This document shows positions 1,099 through 8,769 of a stretch of 11,564 nucleotides of DNA, piece by piece. The translations under genes and the position numbers were made by a program. Source of the stretch: a virus (lineage: Duplodnaviria; Heunggongvirae; Uroviricota; Caudoviricetes); IMG/VR virus record IMGVR_UViG_3300011952_000007; one strand, written 5' to 3'. Each line of letters begins with the position of its first letter. The stretch's first letter is position 1. The notes below the pieces were generated by a model. It searched no databases and was not told where the DNA came from. It saw only the letters and a list, made by a program, of their open reading frames with translations.

Positions 1099-2169
1099 TG
1101 TTCTGCTCCCAGACTTCCTTTGGTAAAGGCTTGTATCAGCCTGTTTGCTGCCGCTTTCTGTGCTGCTACATTGGCAATAACTGATAGTTTTTCCTGGCTT
1201 GCTTTCGTGCAGATCCCAACCCAATTATCCATTAGGAAAAAATTCTCTCTTTCTGCGAAGTCAGTATTTGCACATAATGTTTCAATCATTGAAATTATTT
1301 CTTTTATTGAGTGATTAACCATCATTTGCTGAACAGCATAGCCAAAAGCGTTAATCATCACTGCATGAAACTGGATATATTCTCTTTTGTATTCTGATTG
1401 CTTTGTACCATGGCGAATTGCTTCTAGTTGTGTNNNNNNNNNNACATAACCATGATTCCCATACTGACTCGATGTTACCAATTTCTAGTTTTTTCCCATT
1501 ATGAATACAAAATTTTGATGTTGAATCACTTAATGCTTTGAAACTCACCCACATGTTTGACTTTGACGGAACAACGTTGTGCTCGAAGTCAGTGACTTCT
1601 GCAAAAGTGTCATGTTGCGACAGGAAAGACACCATTTCTTGGGCAACATCGTTTCGTCCGTCATACGCCATATTAATTGCTGCAGATGGTTTTGAAACAT
1701 TATTATTAATGTCAGAAAAGAACTGCTGACGCGCCTTCAAAGGAAGGTTATGCGTAAGCATAAGAGGAATCATAATTGTTTCGCCATAATTACGGCAGAA
1801 CTCAGCTAATCCTGCAGCACGATGCTGTCCATCAAATAATTTTATTTCTGCATCCATAGGAAATCTAGCTAAACCGACATTAGTATTTCCAATCTCATGG
1901 AACTCTATTTCTGAGTTACAATTTCCGACCAATGGTGGAACAATAAATGGTTCCTTTTTCTCGTAAGCGTTGACTAAATATTGATAAAACTTTTTTACCC
2001 TGGTTGGATTAATTTCACGTTGAGAACGTTCAAGGGTACTTCCCGTATTGTCGGTTGCCAATACTCTCGATAGTGCTCTTGCTGGTACTGTCATCATAAG
2101 TATTACAGTGCTTCCCTGCGTTCCTCGTGATGCGGGAAATTCAAAGAAATAATCGCCTACCTTGCTCAT
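1095..2169 (-). CDS. DndB-like DGQHR-domain protein (interrupted by N run 1434-1443)
   Basis: DGQHR motif in KLFDGQHRAAGLAEF; N-terminus FEFPASRGTQGSTVILMMTVPARAL resembles DndB/DpdB family proteins. Start chosen at ATG 2169-2167 (MSKVG...) because AAGGT sits 8 nt upstream; ATG 2205 is an alternative. The open frame resumes after the N run (TQLEAIRHGTKQ... to stop at 1095), so I treat 1095-1481 and 1351-2205 as one gene of about 357 aa. Confidence 0.7.
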
Positions 2170-2197
2170 GATATTACCTTTTACATTATTGTTTTGA

Positions 2198-2497
2198 TTA
2201 TTCATAAACCACCCCGCACCATCCTATGCCGCTATAGTCGCCACGGCGAAGGCCGTTACCTTTTGTGATACATTGGTCCCTGCGAACCGCGATCCTTGCA
2301 CGTTCAACATCACCAGAAGCAACATCCATACACTGAAGCCAAAGGTGAGCGGCAATGCGGAATTGCCCTTTTTTCTCTCTTTCAATCGCGCGTTTTTCGA
2401 TCTCTATCGCCGCAGGAGTAACGGCGACAATCTTTGACGGACTGCGCATTGAAACCTTATTCATGTGATATTTTTCAAGTCGGCTTAACTTTCTCAC
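2198..2497 (-). CDS. Hypothetical protein (99 aa), first gene of the accessory cassette
   Basis: Open frame with GTG start at 2497-2495 and GAGAGGG 5-6 nt upstream. Its stop (TAA 2200-2198) lies just inside the 5' end of the DndB-like ORF. No recognisable motif. Confidence 0.4.
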   Translation of the reverse strand: MRKLSRLEKYHMNKVSMRSPSKIVAVTPAAIEIEKRAIEREKKGQFRIAAHLWLQCMDVASGDVERARIAVRRDQCITKGNGLRRGDYSGIGWCGVVYE

Positions 2498-4640: not shown

Positions 4641-5061
4641 GCCGCTTCCCTCTGCCCATCAAGCTGATCCGCCAGATCCCAGCGCGCTATAATTGCCATT
4701 GCCTCGCGCCGGTAGGAATACATCAGTTCTTCGCACTCAGGGCTNNNNNNNNNNNNNNNNNNNNNNNNNNNNNNNNNNNNNNNNNNNNNNNNNNNNNNNN
4801 NNNNNNNNNNNNNNNNNNNNNNNNNNNNNNNNNNNNGTAGGAATCCATCAGTTCTTCGAACTCAGGGCTGTCTTTAGCAGCCTCCAGCACTTCCTGACGA
4901 ACGCCTTTGCCTGTTACAACGTCGAAAGTTGAGGACAGTTGATGAAGTCGGATGCTCTCAATCAGTTCAACTTGTCGGTCATATAGCTGTTCTGACAGGC
5001 GGTAGTCCTTGTCGAATGCCAGCATGATTTTTTGAAGATTTTTCTGCTGATTAACGTTCAT
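4637..5061 (-). CDS. Hypothetical protein immediately upstream of recE (interrupted by 92-nt N run; may be one gene or two tandem paralogs)
   Basis: N-terminal part MNVNQQKNLQKIMLAFDKDYRLSEQ...SPEFEELMDSY starts at ATG 5061-5059 behind GGGAGGG. A separate frame after the gap reads ...SPECEELMYSYRREAMAIIARWDLADQLDGQREAA and ends with TGA 4639-4637 overlapping the recE ATG. The two visible parts are in different frames if the gap is literally 92 nt. Confidence 0.45.
4712..4869. repeat. 33-bp near-identical direct repeat flanking the N run (4712-4744 and 4837-4869)
   Basis: gtaggaatacatcagttcttcgcactcagggct versus gtaggaatccatcagttcttcgaactcagggct: 31/33 identical, offset 125 bp, both within coding sequence (SPECEELMYSY / SPEFEELMDSY). 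Confidence 0.8.
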
Positions 5062-5063
5062 TA

Positions 5064-5216
5064 TCAGCCCTCCCATATCTCGTTATCGTTGGCCACATCG
5101 CGAGCTTCTTTGCTGACGAAAGCCCACTTAATGCCTTCCTGTAAGGTGCGGAACTTCCAGCTCATGAATCCGCATGCAGTAACGCAGTACCAACCGTTGA
5201 TGATTTTCCACTGCAT
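5064..5216 (-). CDS. Small hypothetical protein (50 aa), first gene of the leftward operon
   Basis: ATG 5216-5214 is preceded by GAGGT 8 nt upstream. Translation MQWKIINGWYCVTACGFMSWKFRTLQEGIKWAFVSKEARDVANDNEIWEG. Its stop TGA (5066-5064) lies 2 nt before the next ATG. Below the 60-aa cutoff of the supplied track. Confidence 0.4.
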   Translation of the reverse strand: MQWKIINGWYCVTACGFMSWKFRTLQEGIKWAFVSKEARDVANDNEIWEG

Positions 5217-5235
5217 AACTTGTTACCTCGGTCTG

Positions 5236-5251
5236 TTACCGTTGAGGTAAT
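5236..5251. promoter_or_regulatory. Operator OL-1 (TTACC-gttga-GGTAAT)
   Basis: Inverted repeat overlapping the -10 and start region of the leftward promoter. Confidence 0.65.
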
Positions 5252-5278
5252 AATTATGCGTATTTGGTTTGATGTCAA
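5250..5278 (-). promoter_or_regulatory. Leftward early promoter (pL-like)
   Basis: Minus strand has a perfect -35 TTGACA (5278-5273), a 17-nt spacer and -10 AATTAT (5255-5250), directing transcription toward the 50-aa ORF, recE and recT. Confidence 0.6.
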
Positions 5279-5296
5279 TAGATATGAGTTAAAAAA

Positions 5297-5313
5297 ATTA
5301 CCCATAAGGTAAT
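5297..5313. promoter_or_regulatory. Operator OL-2 (ATTACC-cataa-GGTAAT)
   Basis: Perfect 6-bp arms, centred about 62 bp from OL-1 and about 19 bp upstream of the -35. Confidence 0.65.
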
Positions 5314-5325
5314 CTTGTTGGCAAT

Positions 5326-5349
5326 AAAAAAGCCGCCATGAGGCGGCTT
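5326..5349 (-). terminator. Intrinsic terminator after the repressor gene
   Basis: Minus strand AAGCCGCC-tcat-GGCGGCTT (8-bp stem) followed by TTTTTT (plus-strand A run 5326-5331); 20 nt downstream of the repressor stop. Confidence 0.65.
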
Positions 5350-5369
5350 ACTTACTGAAAACTATAGTT

Positions 5370-5954
5370 TTATTGTTTGCTTCTTTCGTTCTGGCTGATG
5401 ACAAATTCAATGTAACTTTCGATCTTTGCCTTCTCTGTTTCGGGTAACAATGCGTAGCGCGAGCGGTCATAGTTGATAGTCGCAGGGTCGTGCGGGTGAA
5501 TCAGTAATTCATAGCCGTGACGCCCGAATGCGGATGCAACATTCTCCAGGGTGGAAATGGAAACGCTGACTTCATTGTTTAACAGGCGGCTGATTGTCAC
5601 CTGGGCGACGCCGGATGCGCGGTGTAGTTTTCCCTGCGTTGAAAGGTCGCGGCTTTCGCTCATCCAGCGTTCCAGGTTGTGAGCCGCCAGCTGACCAATG
5701 TCGCTTGGGCCGACAGGCTGAAACCCCTCCTGAGAAAGCGAGCGATCGATATCAAGCCAGTTACGGGGTTTATTGGCGGCAGCTTCAATTTTTCGCGCAA
5801 CCTGGTCGCCGATAACCTTCTTGCCAAGAGCCCAGCGGTTTACCAGATTTGCCTGAGTTCCAAGTTTTTCTGCCATCCGCGTCTGAACACCATTGAATTC
5901 ACGGTCGATCAAGTCGTTGAGATTTTGCCTGCGGACGTCCTGGATACTTTTCAT
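5370..5954 (-). CDS. Prophage repressor with two HTH domains, CI-like in position but lacking an S24 peptidase domain
   Basis: Two XRE-type HTH-like segments (QTRMAEKLGTQANLVNRWALGKK and LHRASGVAQVTISRLLNNEVSVSISTLENVA). No S24 signature could be seen. Sits divergent from the Cro-like gene with operators between. Weak Shine-Dalgarno before the start. Confidence 0.7.
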   Translation of the reverse strand: MKSIQDVRRQNLNDLIDREFNGVQTRMAEKLGTQANLVNRWALGKKVIGDQVARKIEAAANKPRNWLDIDRSLSQEGFQPVGPSDIGQLAAHNLERWMSESRDLSTQGKLHRASGVAQVTISRLLNNEVSVSISTLENVASAFGRHGYELLIHPHDPATINYDRSRYALLPETEKAKIESYIEFVISQNERSKQ

Positions 5955-6008
5955 TTTCTGGAAAATCGCCTCATATATGAATCAGTAGATGATTCAATTT
6001 AAAGCAAT

Positions 6009-6025
6009 ATTACCCAACAGGTAAA
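6009..6025. promoter_or_regulatory. Operator OR-a (ATTACC-caaca-GGTAAa)
   Basis: Inverted repeat in the divergent control region. Confidence 0.6.
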
Positions 6026-6026
6026 T

Positions 6027-6042
6027 GCACCTCATAGGTAAC
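6027..6042. promoter_or_regulatory. Operator OR-b, degenerate (gcACC-tcata-GGTAAC)
   Basis: Right arm is consensus, left arm 3/5. Confidence 0.4.
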
Positions 6043-6047
6043 TATCC

Positions 6048-6076
6048 TTGATTTTTGTTACCTTATGGGTGAATAT
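6048..6076 (+). promoter_or_regulatory. Rightward early promoter (pR-like)
   Basis: -35 TTGATT (6048-6053), 17-nt spacer, -10 GAATAT (6071-6076), 33 nt upstream of the Cro-like ATG. Confidence 0.55.
6057..6072. promoter_or_regulatory. Operator OR-c (TTACC-ttatg-GGTga)
   Basis: Overlaps the spacer and -10 of the pR-like promoter. Confidence 0.5.
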
Positions 6077-6108
6077 TTATTATCTGAAATAAATATCAGG
6101 CAATAGCT

Positions 6109-6339
6109 ATGAGCGATAACGGACATTTCGATTTCAAAAAGCACTGGCTTGCACTTACTCCGGATGAGCGTGAAGCCTTCGCACAGGAAGCCGGAACGAC
6201 GAGTCACTATATCCAGACTCACTTAACAGGTAAGCGCAAAATGCCAGGTAAAGTATTGATGAATGGGCTTTTTAAAGCCTGCAAAACAAGACAATGGCTG
6301 CGCTCAAAAGCAGAACTGGCATACTTCTTCTACTCATGA
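6109..6339 (+). CDS. Cro-like HTH DNA-binding regulator (76 aa)
   Basis: Divergent from the repressor and first gene after the pR-like promoter. HTH-like segment EREAFAQEAGTTSHYIQTHLTGKRKMPGKVL. Family assignment is from position and motif only. Confidence 0.55.
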   Translation: MSDNGHFDFKKHWLALTPDEREAFAQEAGTTSHYIQTHLTGKRKMPGKVLMNGLFKACKTRQWLRSKAELAYFFYS

Positions 6340-6360
6340 TATCCAGCTACAACCCTCTGT

Positions 6361-6384
6361 AGACCGCCACCCGGCGGTCTTTTC
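6361..6384 (+). terminator. Intrinsic terminator after the Cro-like gene (tR1-like position)
   Basis: AGACCGCC-accc-GGCGGTCT perfect 8-bp stem followed by TTTT. Confidence 0.6.
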
Positions 6385-6394
6385 ATATCTATTC

Positions 6395-6410
6395 GTACCT
6401 CAAAGGTAAT
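6395..6410. promoter_or_regulatory. Operator-like site (gTACC-tcaaa-GGTAAT) just downstream of the terminator
   Basis: Same half-site and spacing as the other operators; 16 bp upstream of a candidate -35 TTGATC (6427-6432). Confidence 0.4.
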
Positions 6411-6487
6411 AAAAAACCAAATCTGGTTGATCAAATTTTCCAATTGTGCAAAATAGCCAATATCAATAACAAAAAGAGGCGGAAAAA

Positions 6488-6700
6488 TTGAAGATAGTAA
6501 CCAGAATGGAGGCCGCAAAAGCCGGGTTAAATCGCTATTTCACAGGAAAGCGGTGCCGTCACGGCCATCTCTCTGAAAGGTATGTTCTGAACGGAACATG
6601 TGTTGAATGTGCAATGAATAGCGCCAACCGCCATCGTAATGAATTTGCTTGTGCACTAAAGAGTGCAAGAGGGGAAACCTATGGCAAGCAGCTGGATTAA
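6488..6700 (+). CDS. Small zinc-finger-like protein (C-x-H-x-H ... C-x-x-C)
   Basis: KRCRHGHLSERYVLNGTCVECA contains Cys/His ligands. TTG start at 6488 has AAGAGG 8 nt upstream; ATG 6506 is an alternative. The 3' end overlaps the replication gene by 20 nt. Confidence 0.4.
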   Translation: MKIVTRMEAAKAGLNRYFTGKRCRHGHLSERYVLNGTCVECAMNSANRHRNEFACALKSARGETYGKQLD

Positions 6701-7511
6701 GGTTGAAGTTATCACTCCTGATAAACCTGAAATTTTTCAGATAGCAGAAATTCTGGGTATTGATCCAGATGCTGTTCTTGGAAAGCTGGTTCGTATATGG
6801 GCATGGGCTGACCAGCAAACAATAGACGGTAACGCTGGCAGCGTTACAAAAGGAGTACTTGATAGACTCGCTTTTATTACAGGATTTGCTGACGCCCTCA
6901 TTAGCGTCGGATGGCTTGCTTATCATGACGGCAAACTAATTCTTCCAAACTTTGAGCGACACAATGGAGAATCATCGAAAAAACGTGCACTTACGAATAG
7001 AAGAGTGGCAGAGCATCGAAAACGAGTAACGCAAAAAGTAACGCCAACAGCGTTACAAAAGGAGTTACCAGAGGAAGAGGAAGAGGAAGATATATATAAA
7101 ACCCCACACATAGCGCACGTGCGCGAGGGTGCTCCGACCAGTGAAGCGAACGGTATGCCGTTGCAGGTGGCTGAACCTGAATTTCTGGATGGCCTGAGTG
7201 AACCCATCGGGAAATTTCCGATGACCGATGGCTGGCATCCGTCGCCGGATTTTCGACGGCGTGCTGCGCTGTGGGGAACGGCCCTGCCGGAACCGGAATT
7301 TACACCTGCTGAACTTGCTGCATTCCGGGATTACTGGATGGCTGAGGGCAAAGTGTTCACGCAGGTTCAGTGGGAACAAAAATTCGCCAGGCACGTAAAT
7401 CATATCAGGGGAAAATCAAAAAACGCCGGGAAAAGCGATGAGCTTGACTGGAATAACACTGACTGGATAGAAGGGGTGTGGGATGAAATCAACTCCAGAA
7501 CTTCTCAATGA
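6681..7511 (+). CDS. Replication initiator (O-like position) with DnaT-like C-terminal domain
   Basis: C-terminal GKFPMTDGWHPSPDFRRRAALWGTALPEPEFTPAELAAFRDYWMAEGKVFTQVQWEQKFARHV matches E. coli DnaT as recalled ([29 protein letters not shown]...[20 protein letters not shown]). GAGGGG Shine-Dalgarno before ATG 6681. A Glu-rich linker (EEEEEED) separates the two halves. Confidence 0.8.
   Translation: MASSWIKVEVITPDKPEIFQIAEILGIDPDAVLGKLVRIWAWADQQTIDGNAGSVTKGVLDRLAFITGFADALISVGWLAYHDGKLILPNFERHNGESSKKRALTNRRVAEHRKRVTQKVTPTALQKELPEEEEEEDIYKTPHIAHVREGAPTSEANGMPLQVAEPEFLDGLSEPIGKFPMTDGWHPSPDFRRRAALWGTALPEPEFTPAELAAFRDYWMAEGKVFTQVQWEQKFARHVNHIRGKSKNAGKSDELDWNNTDWIEGVWDEINSRTSQ
6829..7065. repeat. 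Two copies of palindrome GTAACGC-N5-GCGTTAC followed by AAAAGGAGT (6829-6856 and 7038-7065), plus an extra AGTAACGC (7025-7032)
   Basis: An exact 18-bp direct repeat cagcgttacaaaaggagt at 6839-6856 and 7048-7065, read in different frames in the two copies. Followed by (GAGGAA)x3 and atatatataaaa (7071-7100). Confidence 0.55.
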
Positions 7512-8321
7512 GTACGATCGCTTACGTGAGCATGGTGTTGCTGTGCATGAAGAGCGGCGTGACAGCAATGGCAAAAAGGAGCAGGTCGCTAGAATTTTCA
7601 ATGAACTATTTGTCCAGTTACAGGCTGCATTTCCCGCAAGCGTTTCGACCATAAGGGAGCAGAACAAACTTAATGAATTCCGTAAGCAATGGATGCTTGC
7701 GTTTCTGGAGAATGGGATCACTACAATGGAACAGGTTAACGCTGGTATGCGCCACGCCCGCGCCAGTGAGTCTCCGTTCTGGCCGTCGCCAGGGCAATTC
7801 ATCAAGTGGTGTAAAGACAGCAAGATGGTTCTTGGCGTCACCATTGACGATGTGATGGCAGAGTTTCACCGGTACAGCAAGGAAAAAAGTTTATATCCTG
7901 GTGGTCCCGAANNNNNNNNNNCGTTTCTGGCCGCCTGCGCCAGCTGCGCGTCGGTGACCTGATCGGCGTAGCTGCCAAACGCCCCTACCGCGTTGCTGTA
8001 GTTAAGCGCCAGCTTAGCGAGATTGAGGTTGAGAAACACGCGCGCAGGCTGCTCGATGATTGGGCGAAAAAGGTGGCTTCCGGACAGCAGATACCCGATC
8101 CGGTGATCAGCATACAGGCAAAGCCAGAACCCATGAGTACGCCTCCGGACACAGGGAGAGACGTTTACCATCCACCAGGGCGAAGTTTCGGGTGCATGCC
8201 TAACGCCGCCACCCTTGGGGGAATAACACCGGCGCAGTGGCTGATGGAGGAATACAGGCGGGGGAAGGCCGGAGGAGTTATTAAGAAAGGCAGGTTTTAT
8301 CAAGTAATACCAGCGCGATAG
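7483..8321 (+). CDS. Lambda P-like replication protein, helicase loader (interrupted by N run 7912-7921)
   Basis: KEQVARIFNELFVQLQAAFPASVSTIREQNKLNEFRKQWMLAFLENGITTMEQVNAGMRHARASESPFWPSPGQFIKWC matches lambda P as recalled (QVAQIINGVFSQLLATFPASLANRDQNEVNEIRRQWVLAFRENGITTMEQVNAGMRVARRQNRPFLPSPGQFVAWC). After the gap an open frame continues to TAG 8319-8321 and contains GQQIPDPV (lambda P GEAIPEPV). Confidence 0.75.
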
Positions 8322-8333
8322 CGCATTTTTTTA
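8313..8333 (+). terminator. Weak terminator-like element after the P-like gene
   Basis: GCGC-gata-GCGC 4-bp stem followed by ATTTTTTT. The stem is short. Confidence 0.3.
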
Positions 8334-8343
8334 CGTCTCGATA

Positions 8344-8360
8344 ATTACCTGTGAGGTAAT
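8344..8360. promoter_or_regulatory. Operator O3-2 (ATTACC-tgtga-GGTAAT)
   Basis: Perfect 6-bp arms, 18 bp upstream of -35 TTGATT. Confidence 0.6.
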
Positions 8361-8378
8361 AAAATATTCTAAACTCTA

Positions 8379-8407
8379 TTGATTTCGTGTCTTATGTGGT
8401 TTTTAAT
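8379..8407 (+). promoter_or_regulatory. Repressor-controlled internal promoter upstream of the ead/nin-like block
   Basis: -35 TTGATT (8379-8384), 17-nt spacer, -10 TTTAAT (8402-8407), flanked by operators O3-2 and O3-1. Confidence 0.5.
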
Positions 8408-8422
8408 TACCTCAGGGGTAAA
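8406..8422. promoter_or_regulatory. Operator O3-1 (ATTACC-tcagg-GGTAAa)
   Basis: Overlaps the -10 and the Shine-Dalgarno of the gene at 8425; centred 62 bp from O3-2, the same spacing as OL-1/OL-2. Confidence 0.6.
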
Positions 8423-8424
8423 TT

Positions 8425-8769
8425 ATGAGAAAACAGATACAGGCTCTTGGTCGACTCAAAACAGGCCAGATGAACAAAACAGAATCTGCGTATTGCCAGC
8501 ACCTTGAGCTGCGTAAACGTGCAGGGGAAATCGCCTGGTATCGATTTGAGGGTATCAAGCTGCGATTAGCTGACAACACGTTCTATACGCCCGATTTTGC
8601 TGTGATGCTCGCCACCGGCGAGATGGAACTGCACGAAGTGAAAGGTTTCTGGACCGACGACGCCAGGGTGAAAACCAAAGTCGCCGCAGATCAGTATCCG
8701 TTCCGAATCATCGGGGTAACGGTTAAACCAAAGAAAGCAGGTGGTGGCTGGAACATCGAAGAGTTCTGA
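8425..8769 (+). CDS. Small phage protein with a PD-(D/E)XK-like motif, putative nuclease fold
   Basis: TPDFAVMLATGEMELHEVKG carries PD ... E-x-K spacing. AGGGG Shine-Dalgarno before the ATG. Family name not assigned with certainty. Confidence 0.55.
   Translation: MRKQIQALGRLKTGQMNKTESAYCQHLELRKRAGEIAWYRFEGIKLRLADNTFYTPDFAVMLATGEMELHEVKGFWTDDARVKTKVAADQYPFRIIGVTVKPKKAGGGWNIEEF

Follow-up and report, generated by a model that had tools for sequence, protein, structure and literature searches.

Introduction

The characterised relative of the lysogeny switch considered here is the Rep/Ant system of Salmonella phage SPC32H (PDB 5D50, 5D4Z). In secondary accounts, SPC32H Rep is described as built from three domains, for DNA binding (N-terminal), dimerisation (middle) and tetramerisation/Ant binding (C-terminal), as occupying palindromic DNA sites as a tetramer with its DNA-binding domains paired across dimers, and as being disassembled by the antirepressor Ant (PMC9638917; PMC9986798). 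The second of these assigns to it a p53-like tetramerisation domain, of the type shared with Rco of pLS20, that was proposed to drive DNA looping, and states that the structural mechanism of repression "has not been extensively characterized" (PMC9986798). Here, we analysed the IMG/VR record IMGVR_UViG_3300011952_000007, a viral stretch of 11,564 nt (the window), in which the palindrome TTACC-N5-GGTAA recurs at eight sites, all of them intergenic. Comparison with related phages indicates that these palindromes are probably the operators of the prophage master repressor, a member of the SPC32H Rep family, and that every early transcription unit probably starts at a repressor-guarded promoter. 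The 1.3 kb around the sites are 97-98% identical to Escherichia phages HEMP4, vB_EcoP_ZX5 (ZX5), TL-2011b and phiV10 and 77% identical to Enterobacter phage Tyrion, while the entire window gave a patchy match to the early region of these five records, all of the genus Uetakevirus (epsilon15-like podoviruses). This sequence identity marks the window as early/immunity DNA from a phiV10/epsilon15-like (Uetakevirus) prophage of E. coli.

The locus resembles the SPC32H switch in its full-length homologous repressor with the same three-part layout, in its gene order (leftward genes, rep, cro-like gene, small open reading frame (ORF), replication genes, DUF1064 gene), and in carrying TTACC-N5-GGTAA at the same intergenic places; in addition, complete genomes closely related to the window encode an Ant that is 88% identical and preceded by a LexA box. 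It differs in that Rep is only 42% identical and represents a different allele, in that SPC32H has three operators in the pL region where the window has two, and in that ant lies outside the window. What we describe is the probable set of operators in a phiV10-type switch of the SPC32H Rep/Ant family, which follows ordinary lysogeny-switch logic and whose repressor family has already been characterised.

The arrangement of OL and OR around the CI/Cro switch of lambda is well established, and the window is similar to it in having divergent repressor and cro-like genes with three palindromic operators between them and a second cluster at pL, the multiple sites suggesting cooperativity. In contrast to lambda, the repressor of the window has no peptidase S24 domain and its characterised relative is inactivated by an antirepressor, the pL region has two sites 62 bp apart that flank the promoter instead of three adjacent ones, and the later blocks appear to have operator-guarded promoters of their own behind terminators, with no N-like antiterminator identified in the window. 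In mycobacteriophage L5, the gp71 'stoperators' are many repressor sites across the genome, asymmetric and orientation-dependent. Here, too, one motif is found at many places, including ahead of late genes (14 sites in ZX5, some directly after terminators), but the sites are palindromic, far fewer, and mostly coincide with promoter-like elements; being two-fold symmetric and intergenic, they do not belong with the L5-type stoperators, which are asymmetric and lie inside transcribed regions. Tetrameric looping repressors (LacI at O1-O3, GalR, and pLS20 Rco with its p53-like TetDloop) likewise use phased operator pairs flanking a promoter. Classical repressor loops span 92-113 bp, however, so that the 62-bp separation found here is shorter, and looping in the Rep family is something that we infer.

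The TTACC-N5-GGTAA motif and its conservation

A first-pass annotation of the window had reported the inverted repeat ATTACC-N5-GGTAAT at eight positions. All eight were recovered there, the earlier coordinates adding a flanking base on one or both sides of the core, and they share the half-sites and the 5-bp spacer, with mismatches at three sites. The full 17-bp form, on the other hand, is matched at only two of the eight (5297 and 8344), and its outer A/T proved weakly informative in a weight matrix (0.21 bit); the robust motif is the 15-bp core, not the 17-bp form. Five cores are perfect, two have one mismatch and one has two (Table 1). Allowing at most one mismatch, the window contains seven hits against 0.35 expected (shuffle maximum 3, n = 500), all seven intergenic; allowing two, it contains 15 against 3.1 expected, a number reached by none of 200 shuffles. 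A chance or low-complexity origin of the motif was ruled out by these shuffles. The seven other two-mismatch hits are scattered, six inside listed ORFs and one between two ORFs, which is compatible with chance (approximately 3 expected). The earlier statement that no further TTACC-N5-GGTAA occurs in coding sequence holds for the window, and similar densities of the motif in shuffled or coding DNA, named in advance as grounds for rejecting it, were not found: the shuffles fall short, and in ZX5 all 14 sites are intergenic.

A search of IMG/VR returned 483 related stretches. Close relatives were sampled as 80 IMG/VR loci (L012-L091) in which Rep is 98-100% identical, a set suited to polymorphism and not to divergence. 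At greater distance, phiV10 and Tyrion have all eight sites at matching positions, but their spacers differ, and SPC32H carries the same half-sites in the same places: three sites in the pL region and another three between rep and the cro-like gene, then one past the terminator of the cro-like gene and two before the DUF1064 gene. In prophages of Pseudescherichia, Pseudocitrobacter, Serratia and Raoultella and in an unassigned metagenome contig (Rep 53-61% identical), TTACC with a 5-bp spacer is the top recurrent palindrome, again in the same places. Over four region alignments, conservation reached 0.97 in the half-sites, compared to 0.65 in the N5 spacers and 0.70-0.80 in other intergenic columns, and among the close relatives half-site heterozygosity was 0.000-0.008, compared to 0.08-0.48 in the spacers (73-76 loci). 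The half-sites are hence under purifying selection relative to spacers and flanks at orthologous positions. The motif is, moreover, over-represented, restricted to non-coding DNA and superimposed on core promoter elements, covering the -10 and start of pL and the spacer of pR. The results demonstrate that TTACC-N5-GGTAA is a real, selected cis-element.

The operator spacers at 8350-8354 and 5303-5307 are the most polymorphic intergenic positions among the close relatives, with a per-column heterozygosity of up to 0.66 next to invariant flanking promoter bases. This could be due to a simple lack of constraint combined with recombination.

The repressor and a putative antirepressor of relatives

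The 194-aa repressor aligns through residues 1-190 with residues 2-197 of the full-length SPC32H repressor (PDB 5D50 chain A; phmmer, E 4.5e-42) and is 42% identical to SPC32H Rep (BLASTP, E 2e-53), a full-length homology that includes the C-terminal domain. By this homology, its layout is that of an N-terminal helix-turn-helix (HTH) DNA-binding domain, a middle HTH-fold dimerisation domain and a C-terminal tetramerisation/Ant-binding domain. Its Pfam hits are of HTH type only (HTH_3, HTH_26, LacI, YdaS and HTH_31); the same scan gave no Peptidase_S24, which sets the protein apart from autocleaving repressors of the lambda CI/LexA kind. The repressor is 98% identical to ORF21 of ZX5, overexpression of which eliminated free phage and lowered the transcripts of the endolysin and holin genes by more than 99.9% (PMC9782041). 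No operators are defined in that study, and neither the motif nor Uetakevirus operators were described in the full texts searched.

Homology to SPC32H Rep and the position of the sites point to Rep as the protein that binds the motif. Among 20 Rep homologues, the most distant of them 41% identical, the N-terminal recognition region (NLVNRW) shows little or no variation. Since every homologue recovered keeps both the recognition region and the motif, covariation between operator and recognition helix offered no informative variation; a scan of genome contigs for further Rep homologues added two loci only.

A gene of ZX5 without annotated function (2089-2346, minus strand) encodes an 85-aa protein that shares 88% identity with SPC32H Ant, and a perfect LexA box, CTGTATATTTATACAG, precedes it at 2368-2383. 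The larger ORF4 (1078-1773) was tested as the 'anti-repressor' in ZX5 (PMC9782041), but by sequence the small gene is more likely to be the SPC32H-type antirepressor. The ant locus of the complete relatives falls outside the window, and no LexA box was found in the 11.5 kb of the window.

Putative operator pairs at pL and ahead of the downstream block

Two pairs of sites, at pL and ahead of the block that begins with the DUF1064 gene (region D, with the proposed promoter pD), have the same geometry. The first-pass annotation had correctly placed the centres 62 bp apart (5243/5305 and 8352/8414), with 19 nt between the distal site and the proposed -35 in both cases. This spacing is kept exactly in 76 of the 80 close-relative loci at pL and in 73 of 75 in region D, and also in four other genera that share the layout.

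At pL, the half-sites of OL-proximal are invariant in six lineages (heterozygosity 0.005 in 76 close relatives), those of OL-distal show a heterozygosity of 0.000 compared to 0.26 in the spacer, and the segments CTATTGAC and ATAATTATTACC are invariant in the alignment of the region. OL-distal adjoins the terminator of the repressor gene on its downstream side. The order is the same in every lineage: repressor terminator, approximately 10 nt, distal operator, T-run, TCATAnCTA-TTGAC(A/T), 17 bp, AATTAT fused to the proximal operator, leader, ATG. A lone GGTAA half-site, GAGGTAAC (5222-5229), lies 6 nt 5' of the ATG of the first leftward gene (5216) and doubles as its ribosome-binding site; such an overlap of half-site and ribosome-binding site, here and at 8414-8421, is kept in relatives.

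In region D, the half-sites of OD-distal show a heterozygosity of 0.000 over 73 loci that contain 28 different spacers, and the site is conserved in Tyrion, SPC32H, Pseudocitrobacter and Raoultella. The alignment shows no variation in TATTGA, which holds the -35 and is spaced as in pL, or in TTTnAATTACC, and heterozygosity is zero over most of 8375-8407 in the 73 loci. The conserved order is weak terminator, distal operator, yAAAAT, CTA-TTGA(T/A)(T/A)T, 17 bp, TTT(T/A)AAT fused to the proximal operator, ATG. The right half of OD-proximal (GGGGTAA) is also the ribosome-binding site of the gene at 8425, whose ATG follows the site after 3 nt, and in relatives GGGGTAA or GAGGTAA serves in this way.

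Both sets of hexamers named earlier are present, but their description as near-consensus fits pL (10/12) and overstates pD. By sigma-70 criteria, the latter combines TTGATT (4/6), a 17-bp spacer and TTTAAT (5/6) with a T at -11, and it was not listed by the promoter scan because this T replaces the near-invariant A at position 2 of the -10. The case for a separate repressor-controlled promoter ahead of the ead block is carried by the conservation of half-sites, TATTGA and 62-bp spacing across genera and in 73 of 75 relatives. It gains from loci with another layout: Pseudescherichia (L006, 3343/3361), Serratia (L008, 3285/3303) and the metagenome contig (L011, 7642/7660) carry, in place of the region D pair, two operators spaced by 18 bp, arranged as TTGCAA or TTGACA, 4 nt, TTACC-N5-GGT-AATTAT-TACC-N5-GGTAA, that is, a promoter of consensus quality with a 17-bp spacer wrapped by operators. 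The start codon follows after 2 nt in L006 and L011 and after approximately 17 nt in L008. Because these tandem-operator relatives have a consensus-quality promoter there, a repressor-guarded start at region D appears to be a feature of the family. The count of promoters, on the other hand, had been too low, as the region around 6395 makes the downstream pair at least the fourth early start instead of the third.

Two other promoters were considered in this region and rejected. TCGATA-16-TAAAAT (8338-8365), with the distal operator in its spacer, has a -35 that is not conserved in relatives, although the yAAAAT after the operator is, and neither phiV10 nor Tyrion conserves the minus-strand AAGACA-16-TAGAAT (8393-8366).

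A block ATGTGGTT (variants ATATGGWT, often within CCATATRTGG) is found at 8394-8401, between the -35 and the proximal operator of region D. It is also seen in the pL spacer of some relatives and upstream of tail-fibre, head and lysis genes (ZX5 2470, 16158 and 22815; SPC32H 3234, 20060 and 24832). As a second shared motif it was discarded, with three exact copies in ZX5 compared to approximately 1.2 expected and, with one mismatch, 44 hits compared to 36 expected, which is not an enrichment. The three exact ZX5 copies are all intergenic and on the same strand, and the block was kept as a conserved spacer block, not as a separate element.

The divergent region and the site at 6395

Between the repressor and cro-like genes, OR-a is identical in 79 of the 80 close relatives and probably overlaps the repressor's own promoter. 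OR-b, the one site of the eight with two mismatches, retains ACC-N5-GGTAA in eight lineages, and its SPC32H orthologue is perfect (TTACCATAATGGTAA). Directly upstream of OR-c, a -35 of the form TTG(A/C)(T/C)T is conserved. For pR, the promoter scan gave TTGTTA-17-TATTAT at 9/12, while TTGATT is the hexamer conserved in the alignment of the divergent region.

The single site OC, at 6395, follows a solid terminator (-15 kcal/mol). It is present in 78 of the 80 close relatives, and in nine lineages its right half is invariant and its left half degenerate. No partner site lies close by, and the OR sites are 337-385 bp away. In the promoter-like element pC that follows, nine lineages show little or no change in TGGTTGATC and AAAAT but differ in the intervening spacer; the element scores 8/12 and was left unlisted by the promoter scan. 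The earlier suggestion that the 6395 site marks a further regulated start is plausible in view of the conserved TTGATC-16-CAAAAT in nine lineages, but a lone site near -59 would be unable by itself to occlude the polymerase. It may instead block an upstream element, act as a roadblock after the terminator, or pair at a distance with the OR sites.

Spread of the motif over complete genomes

The weight-matrix scan of a whole prophage proposed in the first-pass annotation was made on complete relatives, and it showed that the motif also heads the terS, head-gene, ant/tail-fibre and int regions, so that the earlier count of sites was too low. ZX5 contains 14 sites with at most one mismatch, all of them in the 8.6% of its DNA that is intergenic (binomial P approximately 1e-15; 1.3 sites in shuffles). 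They include equivalents of seven of the eight window sites, the two-mismatch OR-b being recovered only by the weight matrix. Beyond the window region, a tandem operator pair, 18 bp apart, lies directly before terS, one operator precedes the head-gene operon, and another lies between the small ant gene and the tail-fibre/tailspike gene. The operator at 2043 is downstream of the ant stop codon and approximately 150 bp upstream of an ash-family gene, the one at 978 is 22 bp upstream of a small hypothetical gene beside the annotated anti-repressor, and a weaker operator stands 57 bp before int. Throughout the genome the motif stands ahead of most transcription units, and the proposed promoter at the downstream pair is one example of this. 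Overall, the earlier interpretation was borne out as to a selected cis-element at pL, the divergent promoters and the downstream pair, and had to be revised as to the number of promoters and the quality of the pD -10.

Proposed mechanism and alternatives

In the mechanism that we propose, half-site centres 10 bp apart would place two recognition helices in successive major grooves, as for an HTH dimer. pL and pD would follow one design, in which the proximal operator is fused to the -10 over the start and the distal operator lies 62 bp upstream, 19 nt past the -35; 62 bp corresponds to approximately 5.9 helical turns, which would bring the paired operators onto the same face of the DNA. In the divergent region, OR-c would act from within the pR spacer and OR-a and OR-b, on the repressor side, would probably autoregulate the repressor promoter, while the single operator at 6395 would precede a fourth conserved promoter ahead of the replication genes. 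In the lysogen, repressor on the proximal sites would block RNA polymerase sterically. The phased distal sites would most likely raise occupancy, with one tetramer bridging two palindromes so that the 62-bp promoter segment is bent or looped. The LexA-controlled small antirepressor Ant would bring about induction. The bridging is deduced from the 62-bp phasing together with the tetrameric relative, which are supportive but not proof; the rigid phasing of the pairs fits the cooperative binding suggested in the first-pass annotation.

Several observations weigh against this proposal. The single 6395 site, centred near -59, is poorly placed to occlude RNA polymerase. The -10 of pD, TTTAAT, has no -11 A, and pD may be a weak promoter or one that depends on an activator. 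Looping over 62 bp would be tight, and the conserved 19-nt interval could instead be an UP-like A/T element. Finally, the cro-like protein is conserved together with the motif (76% identical to its SPC32H counterpart), and either protein or both may bind.

That the sites are operators but that the 8345/8407 pair and the sites after terminators have no local promoter, serving as roadblocks that reinforce leaky terminators against pR read-through into the downstream block and late genes during lysogeny, seems unlikely, even though several features would fit. An operator lies 10-15 bp past the terminator T-run in region D, at OC (region C) and after the repressor terminator, the terminator before region D is weak (4-bp stem, -8.4 kcal/mol), pD lacks the -11 A and is missing from the promoter scan, and no convincing promoter was found at the ZX5 operator pair directly before terS. 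A pure roadblock, however, would not be expected to keep TATTGA invariant, across genera and in 73 loci, at exactly the pL-like distance from both operators, and the relatives with tandem layout have a consensus-quality promoter at the same place; the two roles are also compatible with each other.

A different reader of the motif is quite improbable. If the 76-aa cro-like protein, or another early regulator, were the main one, with the 194-aa repressor using a different site, this would agree with its membership of a 'transcriptional repressor' PHROG and with its identity to the SPC32H protein (76%, compared to 42% for Rep), which matches the unchanged motif. Yet TTACC-N5-GGTAA is the top recurrent palindrome in every locus examined, the sole one recurring more than three times, and covers both pL and pR; the N-terminal DNA-binding region of Rep is highly conserved as well; and repressor and Cro of the lambda type share operators, so that shared use is likelier than exclusive use. 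SPC32H Rep itself is reported to bind palindromic sites (PMC9638917). It is hardly probable, too, that the outlying sites (6395, 8345 and 8407) mainly anchor long-range loops to OR and OL in one higher-order complex, as between OL and OR in lambda. Such a role would suit a tetrameric repressor family with a domain for which a function in DNA looping has been proposed (PMC9986798), as well as the 6395 site, 337-385 bp from the OR sites and without a local partner. The D pair, on the contrary, has its own 62-bp phasing and a promoter-like core in the pL layout, and its distance to OR varies by tens of bp among relatives, which argues against a phased long loop.

Gene map and other features of the window

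The gene map was drawn from the phiV10 annotation, the ORF list and domain scans (Pfam, PHROG), and the features are collected in Table 1. The T7 run of the terminator at 8313-8332 is invariant in seven aligned sequences. An Rfam search of 5000-8700 gave no structured RNA.

Table 1. Putative operators, promoter elements, terminators and genes in the window, and operators outside the window region in complete relatives
Feature	Position	Strand	Sequence or elements	Remarks
Leftward early genes	end (first ATG) at 5216, running downwards	minus		phiV10 annotation, ORFs
OL-proximal, putative operator	5236-5250		TTACCGTTGAGGTAA	perfect; abuts -10, covers predicted pL start
pL	5250-5278	minus	-35 TTGACA (5278-5273), 17-bp spacer, -10 AATTAT (5255-5250)	promoter scan 10/12; ahead of leftward early genes
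OL-distal, putative operator	5298-5312		TTACCCATAAGGTAA	perfect; 19 nt upstream of pL -35, 62 bp (centres) from OL-proximal
Intrinsic terminator of repressor transcript	5330-5349	minus	8-bp stem, 6 GC pairs, T-run	-18.7 kcal/mol, z -5.3
Repressor gene, 194 aa	5370-5954	minus		SPC32H Rep type
OR-a, putative operator	6010-6024		TTACCCAACAGGTAA	perfect; repressor-gene side; half-site conservation 1.00
OR-b, putative operator	6027-6041		GCACCTCATAGGTAA	two mismatches (GCACC), weak left half; centre 17 bp from OR-a
pR region	6048-6083	plus	-35 TTGATT (6048-6053) or TTGTTA (6055-6060), -10 within 6071-6083	candidate hexamers; ahead of cro-like gene
OR-c, putative operator	6058-6072		TTACCTTATGGGTGA	one mismatch (GGTGA); within pR spacer
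cro-like gene, 76 aa	6109-6339	plus		phrog_35 'transcriptional repressor', E 5.6e-13; 76% identical to SPC32H_042
Intrinsic terminator 3' of cro-like gene	6361-6380	plus	8-bp stem	-15 kcal/mol, z -5.4; annotated in phiV10
OC, putative single operator	6395-6409		GTACCTCAAAGGTAA	one mismatch (GTACC); 17 nt upstream of conserved -35, centre at about -59
pC, promoter-like	6427-6454	plus	TTGATC, 16 bp, CAAAAT	ahead of small ORF, DnaT-like and P-like genes
Small ORF	6488-6700			upstream of replication genes
DnaT-like replication initiator gene	6663-7511			ORF/domain scans
lambda-P-like gene	7483 to ~8321			interrupted by run of N
Weak terminator 3' of P-like gene	8313-8332	plus	GCGC-gata-GCGC + T7; 4-bp stem	-8.4 kcal/mol, z -2.3; annotated in phiV10
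OD-distal, putative operator	8345-8359		TTACCTGTGAGGTAA	perfect; 19 nt upstream of -35 TTGATT
pD, proposed promoter	8379-8407	plus	-35 TTGATT (8379-8384), 17 bp, -10 TTTAAT (8402-8407)	paralogue of pL layout; no -11 A
OD-proximal, putative operator	8407-8421		TTACCTCAGGGGTAA	perfect; fused to -10, covers predicted start
DUF1064/Holliday-junction-resolvase-like gene	8425-8769	plus		first of downstream block; Pfam DUF1064; phrog_190
ead/Ea22-like genes	after DUF1064 gene			domain scans
Putative operators outside window region, ZX5	978, 2043, 2423, 8026, 19625/19643, 22756			all intergenic
Putative operators outside window region, SPC32H	12, 3175, 20013, 24782			all intergenic; equivalents of ZX5 sites, including lysis/conversion divergent region

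The lambda-P-like gene is broken by a run of 10 N at 7912-7921, and the 83 nt that follow (7922-8004) do not align to phiV10 or ZX5, which have 64 nt there; the sequences are colinear again from 8005. Together, the run of N and the unaligned 83 nt probably mark a join made in assembly or scaffolding, or else masked sequence. Near 8286-8295, just 5' of the stop codon of the P-like gene, another short segment is extra. Inside the DnaT-like gene, a 28-nt element, GTAACGC-N5-GCGTTAC-AAAAGGAGT, occurs twice (6829-6856 and 7038-7065), 209 bp apart, each copy holding a 19-bp palindrome, with an extra GTAACGC half-copy at approximately 7025. By analogy with the lambda ori inside gene O, the two copies are candidate origin iterons.

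Significance

Of some interest are the rigid spacing of the 62-bp operator pairs and the spread of the motif over the genome. They suggest, tentatively and as a step beyond the operator assignment itself, that one tetrameric repressor might silence essentially every transcription unit via approximately 14 operators, with 62-bp micro-loops at pL and pD, in place of a lambdoid antitermination cascade. If so, the silenced units would comprise early left, early right, replication, nin-like, terS, head genes, ant/tail fibre and int, and the operator spacers would be free to drift, as seen in the 28 variants of one site among 73 near-identical prophages. The 62-bp pairs provide a simple natural system for testing how two operators are engaged through the unusual cross-dimer DNA binding of an SPC32H-type tetramer. 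phiV10-like prophages occur commonly in E. coli, O157 strains among them, and carry O-antigen-modifying genes, and a map of their switch at the level of single sites offers testable targets for induction studies and for the engineering of phiV10-based reporter phages.

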